Below, one piece after another: positions 2,777 through 16,888 of a stretch of DNA of 64,000 nucleotides. This DNA comes from Escherichia coli. GTDB lineage: Bacteria > Pseudomonadota > Gammaproteobacteria > Enterobacterales > Enterobacteriaceae. The DNA lies in assembly GCF_002854065.1 (NCBI RefSeq), contig NZ_CP024154.1, one strand, 5' to 3'. The position numbers were made by a program, and so were the translations under genes. How positions within the stretch are numbered: position 1 is the first letter of the stretch; each line of letters begins with the position of its first letter. The notes beneath the pieces were generated by a model. That model worked only from the letters and a program-made list of their open reading frames with translations, had not been told where the DNA came from and did no database searches.

Positions 2777-3547
2777 ATGAACGAAACGCTGAATGCACTG
2801 ATTTGTCGCCACGCCCGTAACCTGCTGCTGGCGCAGGGCTGGCCGGAAGAGACGGATGTTGACCAGCGAAATCCGAACTATCCGGGCTGGATCAGCATTT
2901 ACGTGCAGCTGGATGCGCCCCGGCTGGCGACGTTACTCGTTAACCGCCACGATGGCGTGCTGCCGCCGCACCTGGCCTCCGCCATTCAGAAACTGACCGG
3001 AACCGTGGCGGAACTTGTACTGTCCGGCAGCCAGTGGCAGGCGCTGCCGGTACTTCCGGCAGACGGAACGCAGGTGTCTTTCCCGTATGCCGGTGAATGG
3101 CTGACGGAGGAAGAAATCAGGGCCGTTCTTGATGCGGTGCACGATGCGGTACGCAGTGTCAGTTGCCGGGTGGCAGAAGATGCGCGGCGTATCAGGGCGG
3201 CGCTGACCACAACCGGTCAGACGTTGCTGACCCGCCAGACGCGCCGCTTTCGCCTGGTTGTGAAGGAAAGCGATTACCCCTGCTGGCTCGATGAAGACGA
3301 CGAAAACCTGCCCGTGGTGCTCGATGCCATCCTGAACCGGGGCGCTCGTTTTTCGTCGGTGGAAATGTATCTGGTCAGTGAGTGTGTGGAGCATATCCTG
3401 TCCAGTGGGCTGGCCTGCGATGTGCTGCGTATACCTGATGAACCGTCCCGTCGCTGGTTTGACCGGGATATTCTGCGGGAGGTGGTCCTGGAAGCCCGGA
3501 CTGAAATCCGCAGCATGGCGGATGCACTGGCGAAAATCCGGAAATGA
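2777..3547 (+). CDS. hypothetical leading-region protein (256 aa)
   Basis: Long ORF with SD AGGGAGA upstream; no recognised motif. Confidence 0.5.
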
Positions 3548-3619: not shown

Positions 3620-3945
3620 CTCCGCTTTACCCGGCCATGCGGGGCATGGCCTTGTGGGTTTTCAGTTATGTGGCCTCAGCGCCGTGTGCGGGCTGTGCCG
3701 TGCCTCCATCGTAGCCGGGCTTCTGCGGGCGGGTTGCAAGGTAAGGTGAACCGCTGCGGTCACCCGGTCCCTCCTTCCCGTCTGCCGTGATTTTCCGGTC
3801 GTTCACCCGCTCAGATTTCGCGGTCTCACCCTTCAACTCCCGTCAGCCGTGCGCGTCAGGCTGCGGCTTCCCTTGCGCCCTTGCAACCCTGCAGGCCCGG
3901 CAAAGATGGAGGCACGGCACCGCCCGGTGTCGCGGAATATGTGAA
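3620..3945 (+). repeat. repeat family A copy 1: about 330-bp hairpin-rich element, putative single-strand promoter (Frpo/ssi-like)
   Basis: About 95 percent identical to 10567-10892; contains perfect hairpin GGCCATGC-GGG-GCATGGCC; ends about 20 nt before the klcA start. Confidence 0.6.
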
Positions 3946-5248: not shown

Positions 5249-5745
5249 CTTCGGCTCCCGGCTGCCTGGCGGCATCCGGTCGTCAGGCCCGACTCCGACG
5301 GGCAGCTGCTGGCGCACCCGCCAGTCTCCGCCGAACCCGCTGGCGCGGTTTCGGGCTGCCGCTACGGTCCGATGCGTGAAAACCCGGCTTGCAGCGACCG
5401 TTCCGGTCGCGCCGCCCCTGTCGCGCCGTGACCTGCGCTCCCTGCACACCTGACGGTGTGTGAGGAAACTGCGCCTGATGGCGCAGCAGTCCTCCCTCCT
5501 GCCGCCACTCCTGCGGCCTGTTTCCCGCTGTGGACTTTCCGGGGGGCAGACGTAACCCCCTCCCGTTCCATCTGTCCAGGGTGAGATGCACCGGCCACAA
5601 AATTTTTAGCCATGAACCCGGCAAAAAATTTTGCGTCCGCCCCCGGACAGCTGCCCCGTGAGGCGGTAAACGGGCCCCCATCGGAAAGGTCCACTGCGGG
5701 GAGAAACCCCTGTGAAGTGGACGGCAGGAGGAGCTTTCGCTCCTC
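5249..5745 (+). repeat. repeat family B copy 1: about 500-bp hairpin-rich element, putative single-strand promoter/ssi
   Basis: Near-identical to 11592-12090 and partially to 14681-15010; multiple perfect hairpins (GCGACCG-TTC-CGGTCGC, ACACC-TGAC-GGTGT); ends about 70 nt before ssb. Confidence 0.6.
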
Positions 5746-5814
5746 TGAAGGGGCACATGAACGTCCCGTCGCCGGTATCCGGTTTATCTCACATCTTTCA
5801 GTCAGGAGGTTCTT

Positions 5815-6342
5815 ATGAGTGCACGTGGTATCAACAAGGTCATCCTCGTCGGGCGTCTGGGCAATGATCCGGAAGTCCGTTACATCCCCAACGGGGGCGC
5901 AGTGGCAAACCTGCAGGTGGCTACGTCAGAAAGCTGGCGCGACAAACAGACGGGGGAAATGAAGGAACAGACGGAATGGCACCGCGTGGTGCTGTTCGGC
6001 AAGCTCGCGGAAGTGGCTGGCGAATATCTGCGCAAGGGCGCGCAGGTCTACATCGAGGGGCAACTCCGTACCCGTAGCTGGGAAGATAACGGTATCACCC
6101 GTTACGTCACTGAAATTCTTGTTAAGACCACGGGCACCATGCAGATGCTGGGGAGTGCACCACAGCAGAACGCTCAGGCGCAACCGAAGCCTCAGCAGAA
6201 TGGGCAGCCACAGAGTGCTGACGCGACGAAAAAAGGTGGCGCGAAAACGAAAGGCCGTGGACGTAAGGCCGCGCAGCCCGAGCCTCAGCCGCAAACGCCG
6301 GAGGGGGAGGATTACGGGTTTTCAGACGACATCCCGTTCTGA
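5815..6342 (+). CDS. ssb: plasmid single-stranded DNA-binding protein
   Basis: OB-fold SSB N-terminus ([18 protein letters not shown]), Gly/Gln/Pro-rich linker and acidic C-terminal DDIPF tail; SD AGGAGG. Confidence 0.92.
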
Positions 6343-10566: not shown

Positions 10567-10892
10567 CTCCGCTTTTACCCGGCCATGCGGGGCATGGCCT
10601 TGTGGGTTTTCAGTTATGTGGCCGCCGTGTCGTGTGCGGGCTGTGCCGTGCCTCCATCGTAGCCGGGCTTCTGCGGGCGGGATGCAAGGTAAGATGAACC
10701 GCTGCGGTCACCCGGTCCCTCCTTCCCGTCTGCCGTGATTTTCCGGTCGTTCACCCGCTCAGATTTCGCGGTCTCACCCTCCAACTCCCGTCAGCCGTGC
10801 GCGTCGGGCTGCGGCTTTCCTTGCGCCCTTGCATCCCTGCAGGCCCGGCAAAGATGGAGGCACGGCACCGCCCGGTGTCGCAGAACATGTGA
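10567..10892 (+). repeat. repeat family A copy 2, putative single-strand promoter
   Basis: About 95 percent identical to 3620-3945; ends immediately upstream of the ardA SD. Confidence 0.6.
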
Positions 10893-11591: not shown

Positions 11592-12090
11592 CTTCGGCTC
11601 CCGGCTGCCTGGCGGCATCCGGTCGTCAGGCCCGACTCCGACAGGCAGCTGCTGGCGCACCCGCCAGTCTCCGCCGAACCCGCTGGCGCGGTTTCGGGCT
11701 GCCGCTACGGTCCGATGTCTGAAAAACCAGGCTTGCAGCGACCGTTCCGGTCGCGCCGCCCCTGTCGCGCCGGAAACGGCGCTCCCTGCACACCTGACGG
11801 TGTGTAAGGCCACTGCGCCTGATGGCGCAGTTGTCTGCCCTTCCGCCGCCCCCCCTGCGGCCTGTTTCCCCGCTGTGGACTTTCCGGGGGCTGAAGCGGC
11901 CACAACACGTTTCAGCCGTCCAGGGGAGAGATGTACCAGCCACAAAACTTTTTGCCGCAGGCGTCAAAAACTTTTGCGTCTGCCCCCGGACAACTGCCCC
12001 GTGCCGTGGCAGTCGCTGCCCTATCGGAAAGGTCCACTGCGGGGAGAAACCCCGAAGAAGTGGACGGCAGAAGGGGCTTTCGCCCCTCCG
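11592..12090 (+). repeat. repeat family B copy 2, putative single-strand promoter
   Basis: Near-identical to 5249-5745; ends about 50 nt before ORF 12143. Confidence 0.6.
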
Positions 12091-12142
12091 GGGGAGCAAC
12101 CGGTCGGCCCGGCGACCTGATTCAGCAGAAGGAGACGTTTTC

Positions 12143-12936: not shown

Positions 12937-13000
12937 TTAACCCTTGCCGTCTGCCTGTGCAGGCGGCAGGATACGTTCAGACATCTCACCAGGAGGAACC

Positions 13001-13951
13001 GTGAGTAAGAAGAAAAACACCACAACGCCCACGCCGCATGATGCCGCGTTCCGGTCGTTCCTGGCGAATCCCGACGTTGCCAGGGATTTTCTGGAACTGC
13101 ATCTTCCTGCGGAGCACCGGCAGTTGTGCGACCTGTCCACGCTGAAGCTGGAACCCGCCACCTTTGTTGAGCCGGACCTGCATCAGTACGCCAGCGATAT
13201 CCTCTGGAGCGTGAAAACCACCGGGGGTGAAGATGGTTATGTTTATACGCTCATCGAGCACCAGAGCACAGAAAATCTGTACATGCCTTTTCGCATGTTA
13301 CGCTACAGTGTGGCGGCGATGCAGAGACATCTGGAGCAGCACAAAACGTTGCCACTGGTGATTCCGGTGCTGTTCTATCACGGTGAGCGCAGCCCGTACC
13401 CGTACAGCATGAACTGGCTGGACTGTTTTGAGAATCCGGCACTTGCGGCTAAAATATACACAAAGCCGTTTCCGCTGGTTGATATCACTGTCGTTGATGA
13501 CAATGAAATCATGAACCATCGCCGGATGGCCGCACTGACGCTGCTGATGAAGCATATCCGCCATCGTGACATGATGGAGCTGCTGGACAAACTCCCGCAG
13601 GTCATGGTGGAAATTTCAGATGAACAGGTGCGTGTTCTGATTCATTACATCGTTAACGCAGGGGACTCTGTATCACCGGAATTTATGCGGGCGCTGGCTG
13701 AGCGTCTGCCGCAGCATGAGGATAAACTGATGACTATCGCAGAACGTCTTGAGCAAAAAGGTCGCCAGGAAGGCAGGATGGAAGGACGCATGGAAGGACG
13801 CATGGAAGGACGCATGGAAGGACGCATGGAAGGAGCGCTTGAAAAAGCCCTGGCTATTGCGTGCCAGCTTCAGAAAATGGGGATGACGCCGGAGCAGATT
13901 AAGCAGGCTACCGGACTTTCCGATGACGAACTGAAGAACATCACTCACTGA
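13001..13951 (+). CDS. Rpn-family (YhgA-like, transposase_31) PD-(D/E)XK recombination-promoting nuclease
   Basis: N-terminal YhgA-like motifs (HDAAFRSF, ASDILW, YTLIEHQS); SD CAGGAGGA before GTG 13001; C-terminal tail carries (EGRM)n repeat; terminator hairpin at about 13963-13990. Confidence 0.75.
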   Translation: MSKKKNTTTPTPHDAAFRSFLANPDVARDFLELHLPAEHRQLCDLSTLKLEPATFVEPDLHQYASDILWSVKTTGGEDGYVYTLIEHQSTENLYMPFRMLRYSVAAMQRHLEQHKTLPLVIPVLFYHGERSPYPYSMNWLDCFENPALAAKIYTKPFPLVDITVVDDNEIMNHRRMAALTLLMKHIRHRDMMELLDKLPQVMVEISDEQVRVLIHYIVNAGDSVSPEFMRALAERLPQHEDKLMTIAERLEQKGRQEGRMEGRMEGRMEGRMEGRMEGALEKALAIACQLQKMGMTPEQIKQATGLSDDELKNITH

Positions 13952-14013
13952 TGAGAACCACAAAGCCCGGCAAAATGCCGGGTTTTTTTGTCAGCAGGAG
14001 CAGAGCAAACAGC

Positions 14014-14196
14014 ATGACGATTGCAGAACGTCTTATACAGAAAGGTTTCGACGAAGGTTTTAAGAAAGGTGCGCTTGAAGTGGCGCGGGAAGCAGCCTGC
14101 CGGCTGCGGGATATGGGCTGGACGCCGGAACGGATTCAGGAGGCAACCGGACTTTCCGGTGAAGAACTGAAAAAGCTGTTTCCTGATGAGCAGTAG
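14014..14196 (+). CDS. free-standing paralog of the Rpn C-terminal tail domain (60 aa)
   Basis: MTIAERLIQKG...TPERIQEATGLSGEELKKLF aligns with the Rpn tail MTIAERLEQKG...TPEQIKQATGLSDDELKNI; weak SD; hairpin terminator downstream. Confidence 0.45.
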   Translation: MTIAERLIQKGFDEGFKKGALEVAREAACRLRDMGWTPERIQEATGLSGEELKKLFPDEQ

Positions 14197-14226
14197 CCTG
14201 GCATTCTGCCAGGCTGTGAATCACGC

Positions 14227-14478
14227 TCACACATTCCCTGCCGTTTCCCCCAGTTCATTTTCCAGTCGCCTGATGATATCTGCCTTACGCATCCCCTGCA
14301 TGTGAGGCAGCAGGTCACGGACTGAAAGTGCCTGGGTGGTCCTCCAGACGGTGACATCCACCTGTTCCGCATTTTCCCAGGCGTGCCATGTTCTCTGTGT
14401 CACGCCAAATTCTCTGGCCGCTTTTTCGCGTGACCAGAGCATGCTTTTTCGCCAGATTCGCAGTTCCCAGCCGGTCAT
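14227..14478 (-). CDS. helix-turn-helix (XRE/Cro-like) transcriptional regulator (83 aa)
   Basis: HTH signature SREKAAREFGVTQRTWHAWE; AT-rich upstream region with GTGAA-N5-TTCAC inverted repeat. Confidence 0.55.
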   Translation of the reverse strand: MTGWELRIWRKSMLWSREKAAREFGVTQRTWHAWENAEQVDVTVWRTTQALSVRDLLPHMQGMRKADIIRRLENELGETAGNV

Positions 14479-14680
14479 AAAACACCTTTGAAAAAGTGAA
14501 AAAACTTCACTTTATTTTATCATCATAGTCACCAAGTCAGCGCGATAAATAAGAGTGAAAAAGTAAAGAAATTTCATTTTTTTTAGTTGTAGGTGTCGTG
14601 CTGTTTTCTCTGTTTTCACCTGTGCGGGAGTGGGCGTCAGTGACCACCACATGCCATTGTTGTGCCGTCGTTTTTCTTCA

Positions 14681-15010
14681 GTCGCGCCGGATGCGGCGCT
14701 CCCTGCACACCTGACGGTGTGTAAGGCCACTGCGCCTGATGGCGCAGCTGTCTCTGCCTGTCTGCCGCCGCACTGCGGCCTGTTCTCCGCAGACGGACTT
14801 TCCGGGGGTGCATACACGACCACATCCCGTTTCAGTCGTCCAGGGGAGAGATGTACCAGCCACAAAACTTTTTACCGCAGGCGTCAAAAACTTTTGCGTC
14901 TGCCCCCGGACAACTGCCCCGTGACGTGGTGAGCGTCCCCCGTCGGAAAGGTCCACTGCGGGGAAATCCCCGAAGACCCGGACGGCAGAAGGAGCTTCGC
15001 TCCTCCGGGA
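14681..15010 (+). repeat. repeat family B copy 3 (5'-truncated), putative single-strand promoter
   Basis: Matches the 3' two-thirds of copies B1/B2; ends about 45 nt before ORF 15057. Confidence 0.55.
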
Positions 15011-15056
15011 AATGACCTGGCTGACCCGGCAGTCGTGACGATGAGGAGACAATGTG

Positions 15057-15905
15057 ATGAATCAGACTTTACCCACTGCTGACCTGAATACTGCCGGCAC
15101 GACAGATGTTATTCTGTCTGTGGCTATCGACCGCATCATAGCGCAGCGTAACGAAGGTATTGCACTGTTCATGCAGGCGATGGAATGCCTGGCGACAGCG
15201 CGCAGGATTCTGCTCGATGCTTCCGGTGACATTTTTCTCTACGGGTTTGAAGACTGCGTGACTGACTCCGTTCGGTGCATGGATAAACCGGAAGAAGCAA
15301 AAAAGAATATCACCCGTCTTGCCGACCGGAAAATCTGGGATCGCCTGATGACGGATACTGGCATGTACACCTTCATGAGTTCATGCCAGCGTGATGAGTG
15401 GAACAGCCAGCTGATGAGCGACACCTGTCCTGAAATCACCCTGGACAATGTACTGGCAACTTTTCGCTATCTGAATGCCAGCAAGATGCGGACGTTTGAA
15501 CAGGGACTGATTGATGTCTGGCGGAAATTGTCATGGGATTACAGAACCAATAATCCCTGCCGTCTGGGCAAGAAAATCATTATTGAAAACCTGCTGTACC
15601 GCTGGAGTAACGGGCGTGTGACGCTGGACTGCAGCGGACGGGAGGCACTGGATGACCTGGTATGTCCGTTTTATCTACTGGAGGGACGCAACGTTCCTGA
15701 CTTCAGGAACAGCATCGGGGCGCAGTATGGTGAATATCTCGGGAACGGCGATAATGTCGGTAAGCTGTTAGAAGGGGAATATTTTACGGTGCGTGGCTAC
15801 CAGAAAGGGACCGTACACATTGTCTTTAAGCGTCCTGACCTTGTTGAAAAACTGAATGATATTATTGCACGGCATTATCCTGGTGCATTGCCGCCACGAG
15901 TCTGA
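15057..15905 (+). CDS. hypothetical protein (283 aa); oriT-proximal plus-strand gene of the leading region
   Basis: SD GAGGAG 7 nt upstream of ATG 15057; directly behind repeat B3; terminator hairpin at about 15911-15945. Confidence 0.55.
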   Translation: MNQTLPTADLNTAGTTDVILSVAIDRIIAQRNEGIALFMQAMECLATARRILLDASGDIFLYGFEDCVTDSVRCMDKPEEAKKNITRLADRKIWDRLMTDTGMYTFMSSCQRDEWNSQLMSDTCPEITLDNVLATFRYLNASKMRTFEQGLIDVWRKLSWDYRTNNPCRLGKKIIIENLLYRWSNGRVTLDCSGREALDDLVCPFYLLEGRNVPDFRNSIGAQYGEYLGNGDNVGKLLEGEYFTVRGYQKGTVHIVFKRPDLVEKLNDIIARHYPGALPPRV

Positions 15906-15989
15906 TTAAACAGAAAAGCCCTGGTATTTATGCCGGGGCTTTTTTTCTGTAATCATCATAATCTCAGAACACGATGTGACATTGTCACA

Positions 15990-16331
15990 TCAATTGTTGT
16001 TCATATCGATGCCATCTTTCCTGCCTGAATCTGTCTTTTTAGGTGCTGTTTTAGAGGAAGAACGGCGGGATGGTTTTTTCGATTCTGCTTCCCGAATAAT
16101 GTCACGAAGTGCTTTCTCTCCTACTTCATACCCTGCATTTTTGAGCGTGTCACGAACATCTGCCAGTGTATAACCCTTTGTCCTTACCAGGACAATGATG
16201 TCATCACGAATGGCATCAAGAAAATCACGCAATGTTTTCCGTTGAGCGGTGAGGTCCGGCAATTCCGATAAGGCAGCTTTTGCCAGCTGGATGTCATCAT
16301 CTGAGTAAAATTTTTTAGAAGCCATTGGCAC
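15990..16331 (-). CDS. hypothetical small basic protein next to oriT (possible DNA-binding protein)
   Basis: ORF of 113 aa with Lys/Arg/Ser-rich C-terminus; stop codon lies within a perfect 20-bp palindrome. Confidence 0.4.
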   Translation of the reverse strand: MPMASKKFYSDDDIQLAKAALSELPDLTAQRKTLRDFLDAIRDDIIVLVRTKGYTLADVRDTLKNAGYEVGEKALRDIIREAESKKPSRRSSSKTAPKKTDSGRKDGIDMNNN

Positions 16332-16439
16332 TTTCTCTCTGTTTTATGTTGAAGCCTGATTTTATCACCAAAACTGCCCCTGGCAGGGCTGCGCCCTGCC
16401 TCTGCCGTCTGCATAAGACTATGATGCACAAAAATAACA

Positions 16440-16545
16440 GGCTATAATTGACCGAAAAACGGGACAGGATGTGGGAATGTCGGACCGCGCACGCGCACTC
16501 AGACATTCCCCACCTGGTCAGGGCTTTGCCCCGACACCCCGGTAA
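16440..16545. other. oriT: origin of transfer (oriT) with inverted repeats, immediately upstream of nikA
   Basis: GGGAATGTC...GACATTCCC inverted repeat flanking a GC-rich core, plus GGTCAGGGCTTTGCCCCGAC; position and orientation relative to nikA-nikB and the leading region. Confidence 0.65.
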
Positions 16546-16555
16546 GGAGCAGACC

Positions 16556-16888
16556 ATGAGTGAGAAGAAAACCCGAACGGGCAGTGAGAACAGGAAGAGA
16601 ATTGTAAAATTCACGGCGAGATTCACGGAGGATGAGGCTGAAATCGTAAGAGAAAAAGCGGAGTCAAGTGGACAGACGGTTTCAACATTTATACGAAGCT
16701 CTTCACTGGATAAGGTGGTTAACTGCCGTACTGACGACCGTATGATTGATGAGATTATGCGTCTTGGCCGCCTTCAGAAGCATCTGTTTGTGGAGGGAAA
16801 ACGCACTGGTGATAAGGAGTATGCAGAGGTTCTTGTTGCCATTACTGAATATGTCAATGCTCTGCGAAGAGACTTAATGGGACGCTGA
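16556..16888 (+). CDS. nikA: relaxosome accessory protein NikA (ribbon-helix-helix)
   Basis: 110-aa product immediately upstream of the relaxase; SD AAGGAG. Confidence 0.85.
   Translation: MSEKKTRTGSENRKRIVKFTARFTEDEAEIVREKAESSGQTVSTFIRSSSLDKVVNCRTDDRMIDEIMRLGRLQKHLFVEGKRTGDKEYAEVLVAITEYVNALRRDLMGR

Follow-up and report, generated by a model that had tools for sequence, protein, structure and literature searches.

Analysis of a 64,000-nucleotide stretch of DNA from Escherichia coli (contig NZ_CP024154.1 of assembly GCF_002854065.1; hereafter the window) points to ygfB as an oriT-proximal gene of I-complex plasmids that has a dedicated promoter of the Frpo type and encodes a product for establishment or anti-defence in the recipient; we give this account as a whole a probability of about 0.5. 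Earlier work has described the gene together with its position and promoter, and has flagged its family, DUF4942, as an uncharacterised family of leading regions. New here are a confident AlphaFold model that finds no match among solved structures, fusions of the family to a methyltransferase domain, the context of the family in island arrays and a dN/dS ratio of ~0.17. ygfB is a legitimate experimental target rather than a new discovery. Plasmids of the I-complex rank among the main vehicles of resistance genes, including those for ESBL, and ygfB is the first protein-coding information that they can express on reaching a new host; the gene is conserved in ~2,000 sequenced plasmids and in many phages and chromosomal islands. 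Knowledge of what YgfB does would close one of the widest gaps left in the set of leading-region genes, and it might uncover a so far unrecognised route by which bacterial immunity is evaded.

Position of ygfB next to the origin of transfer

The window belongs to a plasmid of the I-complex (IncI1/K/Z-type) and is collinear with pESBL. A megablast search of PLSDB with positions 14400-16600 matched 2,170 plasmids from Escherichia, Salmonella, Shigella and Klebsiella, 1,915 of them with at least 80% query coverage, and nearly all are conjugative, with a MOBP relaxase and MPF_I transfer. The closest match, an IncK2/Z plasmid with 98.5% identity, carries, on the plus strand unless marked otherwise, genes for a DNA methylase, an antirestriction protein (ArdB/KlcA-type), Ssb, DUF905, a ParB-like protein and PsiB, followed by psiA, ardA, an Rpn nuclease gene, a helix-turn-helix gene (minus), the DUF4942 gene, 'MobC' (minus), nikA and nikB. 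The pESBL gene table of Yamaichi et al. 2014 lists Hp21 (252 nt, minus), Hp22 (849 nt, plus) and Hp23/YggA (336 nt, minus), and oriT at 70354-70436 with nikA and nikB next. Because gene sizes and spacings in the window agree with this table, the open reading frame under study is Hp22 of pESBL. Entries in AFDB give its product the name YgfB. The features of the region are collected in Table 1.

Table 1 Features around ygfB and related elements in the window
Feature	Position	Strand	Remarks
oriT	~16460-16542	-	Placed by collinearity with pESBL oriT 70354-70436
yggA (pESBL Hp23)	15990-16331	-	Sole ORF between the predicted nick and ygfB
Intrinsic-terminator-like hairpin (AAAAGCCCTGG...CCGGGGCTTTTTTT)	15914-15946		Bidirectional; between convergent ygfB and yggA
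ygfB (pESBL Hp22)	15057-15905	+	282-aa stand-alone DUF4942 protein, soluble
ygfB Shine-Dalgarno sequence GAGGAG	15043-15048	+	8 nt 5' of ATG; read from the sequence
Class-1 (Frpo/ssi-type) element, copy 3, before ygfB	14681-15010	-	Direct repeat; RNA plus-sense toward ygfB
Hairpin-apex core of the element	14802-14912	-	Common to Frpo-type elements of other plasmid groups
Helix-turn-helix gene (pESBL Hp21)	14227-14478	-	Divergent neighbour, outside the ygfB transcription unit
Class-1 element, copy 2, downstream of ardA	11764-12100	-	Shared 5' extension from 11592
Class-1 element, copy 1, upstream of ssb	5420-5760	-	Shared 5' extension from 5249

The origin of transfer contains an 18-nt inverted repeat at 16473-16510; reading along the minus strand, ACATCCTG/T comes next. 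Origins of the MOBP type consist of an inverted repeat, 8 nt and the nick, and we take ACATCCTG/T at this repeat to be a nick region of the MOBP type. Because the layout of the inverted repeat and ACATCCTG/T fits MOBP origins, the predicted nick site is between 16465 and 16464, and the minus strand would leave toward lower coordinates. The same direction had been proposed in the original prediction, and the collinearity with pESBL and the structure of oriT both agree with it. Consistently, ardA, psiB and ssb are established as leading-region genes of IncI1 plasmids that are transcribed from the transferred strand, and oriT-inversion experiments in pESBL also agree with transfer of the minus strand.

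Measured from the predicted nick, the template of ygfB occupies nucleotides 560-1,407 and its promoter element nucleotides 1,454-1,783. The only intervening gene, yggA, lies on the minus strand and is not transcribable from the transferred strand, so ygfB is the first gene that the transferred strand (T-strand) can express; the open reading frame was thus correctly named as the first plus-strand gene to reach the recipient. Its position had also been given correctly, but the predicted length of 283 residues is obtained only from an in-frame GTG at 15054: translation from the ATG at 15057 to the stop codon at 15903-15905 yields 282 residues, and this ATG start (849 nt, 282 aa) is the one used in PGAP-annotated homologues. 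The strong Shine-Dalgarno sequence of the original prediction is present as well. Downstream of the stop codon, two inverted-repeat arms (15914-15927 and 15930-15943) and a T run form the terminator-like hairpin, and because this hairpin separates ygfB from yggA, ygfB constitutes a monocistronic unit. A transcription unit that comprises ygfB alone, with a single-strand promoter and a strong Shine-Dalgarno sequence ahead of it and a terminator behind, and that lies within the first ~1.8 kb to enter, is well supported.

The product had been proposed as an undescribed factor, which does not hold: ygfB is annotated in ~2,000 PLSDB plasmids (1,972 near-full-length copies), and DUF4942 is family 24 in the leading-region survey of Samuel et al. 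2024. In that survey, the family is uncharacterised, has a median position of 1 from oriT, is enriched in leading regions with an FDR p of 0 and keeps the T-strand orientation across thousands of elements; the anti-defence screen returned 'NA' for all of its 2,171 members. The window copy is 96-98% identical over its full length to the annotated copies of I-complex plasmids, which share its oriT-adjacent position and its T-strand orientation without any material difference. Judged from its sequence, the ygfB of the window is a typical member of its family. Among the alleles of I-complex plasmids, dN/dS is 0.16-0.18, and one copy, located in a cointegrate plasmid, is frameshifted.

The Frpo-type element upstream of ygfB

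The ~330-nt element in front of ygfB belongs to a repeat family with exactly three copies in the window, which are 80-87% identical in pairwise comparison; repeat search, MAFFT and blastn gave 87% identity of the ygfB copy to 11764-12092 of copy 2 and 80% to 5420-5745 of copy 1, and a search for further class-1 copies within the window found none besides these three. The ygfB copy had been described as a truncated form of the repeat that also precedes ssb. The repeat is real, and a ~171-nt 5' extension present in copies 1 and 2 (5249-5419 and 11592-11763) is missing from copy 3, but the ~330-nt core of copy 3 is complete.

When the minus strand from 14660 to 15056 is folded as single-stranded DNA, it forms a long imperfect hairpin of -105.6 kcal/mol (z = -7.7). 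None of 100 shuffled sequences folded as stably, and the plus strand gave z = -4.5. The apex core of the hairpin (~14802-14912) has counterparts of 75-78% identity in ~2,700 other plasmids, where ssb is typically the neighbouring gene. Inspection of the fold gave no convincing placement of -35 and -10 hexamers in the hairpin, a scan for double-stranded promoters ahead of ygfB found no strong sigma-70 site, and an Rfam scan of 14200-16600 returned no significant match.

Elements of this kind are known from related plasmids. Three Frpo-like repeats, R1-R3, have been described in leading regions of the IncI type, together with a natural R1/R3 recombinant that has lost the intervening 9.7-kb module (Venturini et al. 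2013); the size of this module matches the spacing of 9.26 kb between copies 1 and 3 in the window. In the study of Wen et al. 2025, six operons of pESBL are induced up to ~500-fold in transconjugant RNA at 15 min, and ahead of each lies a hairpin promoter whose start site was mapped by 5'RACE. These promoters include the three elements ssi1-3 of ColIb-P9 ('class 1', Frpo-like), with one promoter before the methylase, and a second class with two copies, before klcA and ardA. The window also contains a 300-nt pair of 97% identity at 3626-3925 and 10574-10873, which by collinearity with the locus L001 lies before the antirestriction gene and ardA, and its inventory of three class-1 copies and one 300-nt pair fits the set of Wen et al. 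Because the window has exactly three class-1 copies, the ygfB copy must be one of ssi1-3. From this promoter count we infer that ygfB is among the six induced operons, although the main text of Wen et al. does not use the name Hp22.

The single-strand promoter of the original prediction is borne out to the extent that the element shares homology with the ssi/R1-R3 elements of the Frpo type known from the literature, forms its hairpin on the transferred strand and is oriented to read through into a co-oriented gene. Early expression of ygfB from a single-strand promoter is therefore very probable.

The DUF4942 family and its genomic company

The original prediction assigned no motif to the protein. 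Pfam places residues 90-275 in DUF4942 (PF13708; E = 1.2e-48, model positions 5-189 of 190), and an in-house profile of the family covers residues 19-285 of the open reading frame. An exhaustive search of representatives collected 1,928 clusters of the DUF4942 family, mostly stand-alone proteins of 250-300 aa. This is also the length of most of the best 150 representatives, and YgfB with its 282 residues fits the stand-alone architecture. The close relatives of YgfB are all DUF4942 proteins of Enterobacterales, and a second DUF4942 paralogue was sought in the window and not found. W94, G150, L158, D200, H254 and N267 are invariant in the family.

YgfB has a mass of 32 kDa and a pI of 5.6 (family median 7.7), with an acidic N-terminal half and a basic C-terminal half. 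It has no transmembrane segment, the maximum of the Kyte-Doolittle profile (window 19) being 1.25. The AlphaFold model, built from 88 sequences (pLDDT 88.7, pTM 0.80), has a helical bundle at its N-terminus and an alpha/beta domain at its C-terminus. Neither a search of PDB chains with the YgfB sequence and the 88-sequence profile nor a fold comparison of the model with solved structures gave a match. On the basis of this model, YgfB is taken to be a soluble two-domain protein whose fold is not among the solved structures. NCBIfam has no family for it, and the best PADLOC result, a 35-residue match to a 2TM 'Effector' model at E = 0.007, is not convincing. Across NCBIfam, PADLOC, PDB sequences and folds, no homology to known anti-restriction, anti-CRISPR or SOS-inhibitor proteins was detected. 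The homology and structure searches that had been suggested as a check thus assigned the protein to DUF4942, matched no solved fold and gave no clear sign of homology with housekeeping or partition proteins.

A few relatives of 460-559 aa, together with PHROG 6263, carry DUF4942 as their N-terminal half, followed by a class-I methyltransferase domain of ~190 aa with the motifs FxTP, EPSAGxG and NPPF and by no other accessory domain. PHROG 6263 is labelled 'DNA methyltransferase', and the fusion genes are located on short phage- or MGE-like contigs. The N-terminal ~270 residues of the fusion proteins (PHROG 6263; for example UniProt A2SNG5, P0212, P0256) are homologous to full-length YgfB, whereas YgfB has no catalytic domain and none of the three motifs. 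Consistently, SAM-binding motif I and catalytic motif IV (D/N/S-PP-Y/F) are absent from YgfB, and Pfam finds no methyltransferase domain in it. YgfB was therefore rejected as a methyltransferase, because the catalytic motifs are confined to the additional C-terminal domain that the fused relatives carry, and legacy labels such as 'methyltransferase' or 'restriction methylase' on copies of YgfB are misleading, since the catalytic domain is missing. Because DUF4942 is the sole non-catalytic domain of the fusions, the architecture suggests that it serves there as a substrate-recognition or binding module. The fused methyltransferase domain itself gives weak and generic matches in NCBIfam, including weak ones to Erm/KsgA. 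Its best solved matches are also weak (M.TaqI, E = 0.04; HemK, E = 0.24), and because even M.TaqI reaches no better value, action of YgfB on DNA is something that we infer.

Plasmids of Pantoea and Salmonella encode relatives with ~50% identity, whose genes likewise belong to leading regions but occupy other positions, co-oriented with ParB-like and antirestriction genes, ssb and psiAB. The DUF4942 gene of the Salmonella plasmid closes an operon that starts after a match to the initial 46 nt of the element. A scan of one genome per species with 19 closer sequences as query gave 80 loci, to which three were added. The neighbouring open reading frames of these 83 loci were clustered de novo, the clusters were named with Pfam and NCBIfam, and loci of the plasmid type were recognised by ParB-like, PsiA and NikB clusters. 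The classification yielded 57 island-type loci, 12 of the plasmid leading-region type and 14 others. In the 57 island-type loci, DUF4942 closes an array in which all genes are co-oriented, in the order GTPase, WYL regulator, DUF932, Antirestrict (KlcA), RadC, DUF987, CbeA, CbtA, DUF5983 and DUF4942. The published table of the SRL island has the same gene arrangement. One E. albertii locus is an island edge adjoining tRNA-Sec. More distant relatives are found in early regions of phages. Across genomes, DUF4942 genes are thus co-oriented with genes for KlcA/ArdB antirestriction proteins, RadC, DUF932, Ssb and PsiAB.

Proposed function and comparison with known systems

The following sequence of events would account for these features; its anatomy is taken from the window and its promoter activity from published work on the collinear pESBL. 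The relaxase would nick the minus strand at ~16464, and the nicked strand would enter the recipient with its 5' end first. The ygfB template would arrive within the first 0.6-1.4 kb, and the 330-nt promoter element would follow at 1.45-1.8 kb. On the single strand, the element would fold into its long imperfect hairpin and be used as a promoter by the host RNA polymerase. The resulting plus-sense, monocistronic ygfB mRNA would end at the hairpin at 15914-15946, and the strong Shine-Dalgarno sequence would allow efficient translation. Synthesis of the complementary strand would then remove the hairpin, and expression of ygfB would stop.

An establishment or anti-defence role of some kind, useful under certain conditions, has in our estimate an even chance of being correct. 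This reading is based on the fusion architecture and on the antirestriction and DNA-handling neighbours that accompany the family on three kinds of mobile element, as well as on purifying selection and on the fact that permissive matings in the laboratory bring out no phenotype. In the Tn-seq data of Yamaichi et al. 2014 on pESBL, Hp22 is classed as neutral for transfer with a probability of 1.00. TraDIS of the I-complex plasmid pMS7163B, with a recipient carrying EcoKI, picked out ardA, ardB and ssb among other genes; ygfB is not among the hits, a result that is informative only if pMS7163B carries the gene. In the literature DUF4942 is mentioned by name only, and no protein of the family has been assigned an experimental function. 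If YgfB does act in establishment, its target would be a nucleic acid, likeliest the incoming DNA or the restriction-modification complex of the host, and YgfB itself would not methylate. A mechanism that targets nucleic acids independently of any methyltransferase is, taken by itself, rather unlikely. The fuller proposal, in which YgfB and DUF4942 represent a new establishment or anti-defence class with a novel fold, independent of methyltransferases, directed at nucleic acids or restriction-modification complexes, made seconds after entry and acting against a barrier that standard matings do not probe, is possible but doubtful.

The fusions also allow another interpretation, that YgfB serves a DNA methyltransferase, either the orphan methylase of the plasmid or a host enzyme, as an accessory or targeting subunit, and that it helps to methylate incoming DNA before restriction. 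Besides the joining of DUF4942 to an NPPF amino-methyltransferase and the label of PHROG 6263, this interpretation can draw on the plasmid L018, in which the same small methyltransferase domain is encoded by a separate, co-oriented gene 7.2 kb from the DUF4942 gene, and on the orphan methylase that protects against restriction in leading regions of the I-complex. However, a stand-alone copy of the fused domain was sought in the window and not found, an amino-methyltransferase is recognisable within 10 kb of DUF4942 at only ~2 of the 83 loci, and none of the 57 island-type arrays has a methyltransferase as a recurrent neighbour. The plasmid methylase (a homologue of M.EcoGIX, near 1.7-2.4 kb of the window) belongs to another class (PF01555) and lies ~13 kb away in another operon. 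An obligate methyltransferase partner encoded in cis is unsupported, because such genes occur at ~2 of the 83 loci and have no counterpart in the window, and a role as methyltransferase subunit is unlikely.

Two further readings start from the location of the gene and from its promoter. If YgfB took part in DNA processing in the new host, namely in recircularisation at oriT, priming of the complementary strand or turnover of the relaxosome, its place beside oriT would be explained: ygfB is the T-strand-oriented gene closest to oriT, and Frpo-type transcripts have been proposed as primers of complementary-strand synthesis. Insertions in Hp22 are nevertheless neutral for transfer in the pESBL data, most relatives reside in islands or at other leading-region positions with no oriT or relaxase nearby, and relatives exist in phages, which makes such a role very unlikely. 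Alternatively, the element may prime or promote in its own right, with ygfB as a passenger of marginal or host-directed function, linked for instance to toxin-antitoxin systems or host physiology. The neutral Tn-seq phenotype, the frameshifted copy, the CbtA/CbeA toxin-antitoxin pairs adjoining the island relatives and the natural R1/R3 recombinant, which retains a Frpo element at the position of the ygfB promoter, are all in line with a passenger. We regard it as decidedly unlikely against a dN/dS of ~0.17, the retention of ygfB in ~2,000 plasmids and of the family in its 1,928 representatives, the strong Shine-Dalgarno sequence and terminator that ygfB has of its own, and the consistent co-orientation with the T-strand across thousands of elements.

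Among known systems, the element in front of ygfB closely resembles Frpo of plasmid F and ssi1-3/R1-R3 of ColIb-P9, R64 and pESBL (PMC12672017, PMC3817090). The ssi/R elements likewise are ~330 nt long and occur in three dispersed copies in the leading region, on the transferred strand they fold into a long imperfect hairpin that lies ahead of early genes in the same orientation, as at ygfB, and the core of the ygfB copy is common to the IncF-type elements beside ssb. The ygfB element differs from the other two copies of the window by the missing 5' extension, and from the Frpo and ssi/R elements used for comparison, which serve multi-gene operons, in that it serves a single gene. At the level of the product, ArdA, KlcA/ArdB, PsiB and the orphan methylase M.EcoGIX are encoded in the same region, in the same orientation and with the same expression logic as YgfB, and genes of the KlcA type frequently co-occur with DUF4942 genes. 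YgfB resembles none of these proteins in sequence or structure, and shares with them its place in the leading region and its mode of early expression.

Genes flanking ygfB

On the oriT side, ygfB, which encodes the DUF4942 protein, is followed by yggA (Hp23 of pESBL), whose orientation does not allow it to be transcribed from the transferred strand. PGAP names its product 'molybdopterin-guanine dinucleotide biosynthesis protein MobC', which, for a plasmid protein, is apparently a confusion of names, and searches of NCBIfam, PHROG and PADLOC gave no match for it. Hp23 was neutral in the published pESBL Tn-seq.

On the other side, within 14227-14680, lies the divergent HTH gene Hp21, which matches PHROG 6962 and, weakly, the PADLOC mad1 (mads_1) model. 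It is followed by an AT-rich spacer, whose inverted repeats and palindrome could be operators; in the equivalent spacer of plasmid L094, PGAP calls a 65-aa minus-strand ORF. Further out, the Rpn-family nuclease ORF carries a perfect 12-nt tandem repeat (4.8 copies, 13778-13834) that codes for MEGR repeats, and its C-terminal region, corresponding to TIGR01784 positions 215-273, is duplicated in the ORF that follows (repeats 13817-13938 and 14053-14174).

Features of the leading region
Feature	Position	Strand	Remarks
300-nt repeat, class-2-like	3626-3925 and 10574-10873		97% identity; collinearity with L001
Rpn-family nuclease ORF	12944-13951		
ORF after Rpn	13951-14196		81 aa
Inverted repeats in Hp21 spacer	14506-14521 / 14544-14559		
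Palindrome in Hp21 spacer	14559-14584		
yggA (pESBL Hp23)	15990-16331	-	between ygfB and oriT

Loss of a ygfB copy and a 'split' form of the fusion

In a 318-kb IncFIB/MPF_I cointegrate plasmid (L095, NZ_CP149208.1), the ygfB copy at 601-1449 is frameshifted, contains 15 in-frame stops and has no CDS annotation; it is an instance of ygfB loss. A Hafnia paralvei locus (L018), which marker genes assign to the plasmid leading-region type, has a stand-alone gene at 2833-3462 whose 209-aa product is homologous (E = 1e-20, ~33% identity) to the methyltransferase domain fused to DUF4942 in a few relatives. Because this homologue is encoded apart from DUF4942, 7.2 kb upstream on the same strand, the arrangement is a 'split' version of the fusion.

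Probable single-strand promoter elements

Of the three copies of the class-1 element (Frpo/ssi type), the first two share a 5' extension of ~171 nt with 97% identity (5249-5419 and 11592-11763), which is absent from the copy preceding ygfB. The first 46 nt of the element (GTCGCGCC...CCTGACGGTGTGT) occur four times, at 6211, 9042, 12742 and 14845, in the leading region of a Salmonella plasmid (L005) that is diverged outside these matches. This recurrence amid diverged sequence suggests a conserved 5' box within otherwise divergent single-strand promoters.

Collinearity with L001, an annotated plasmid, places the two copies of the 300-nt direct repeat 5' of a KlcA/ArdB-type antirestriction gene and of ardA, respectively. 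Wen et al. (2025) described two 'class 2' single-strand promoters for pESBL, to which this pair corresponds.
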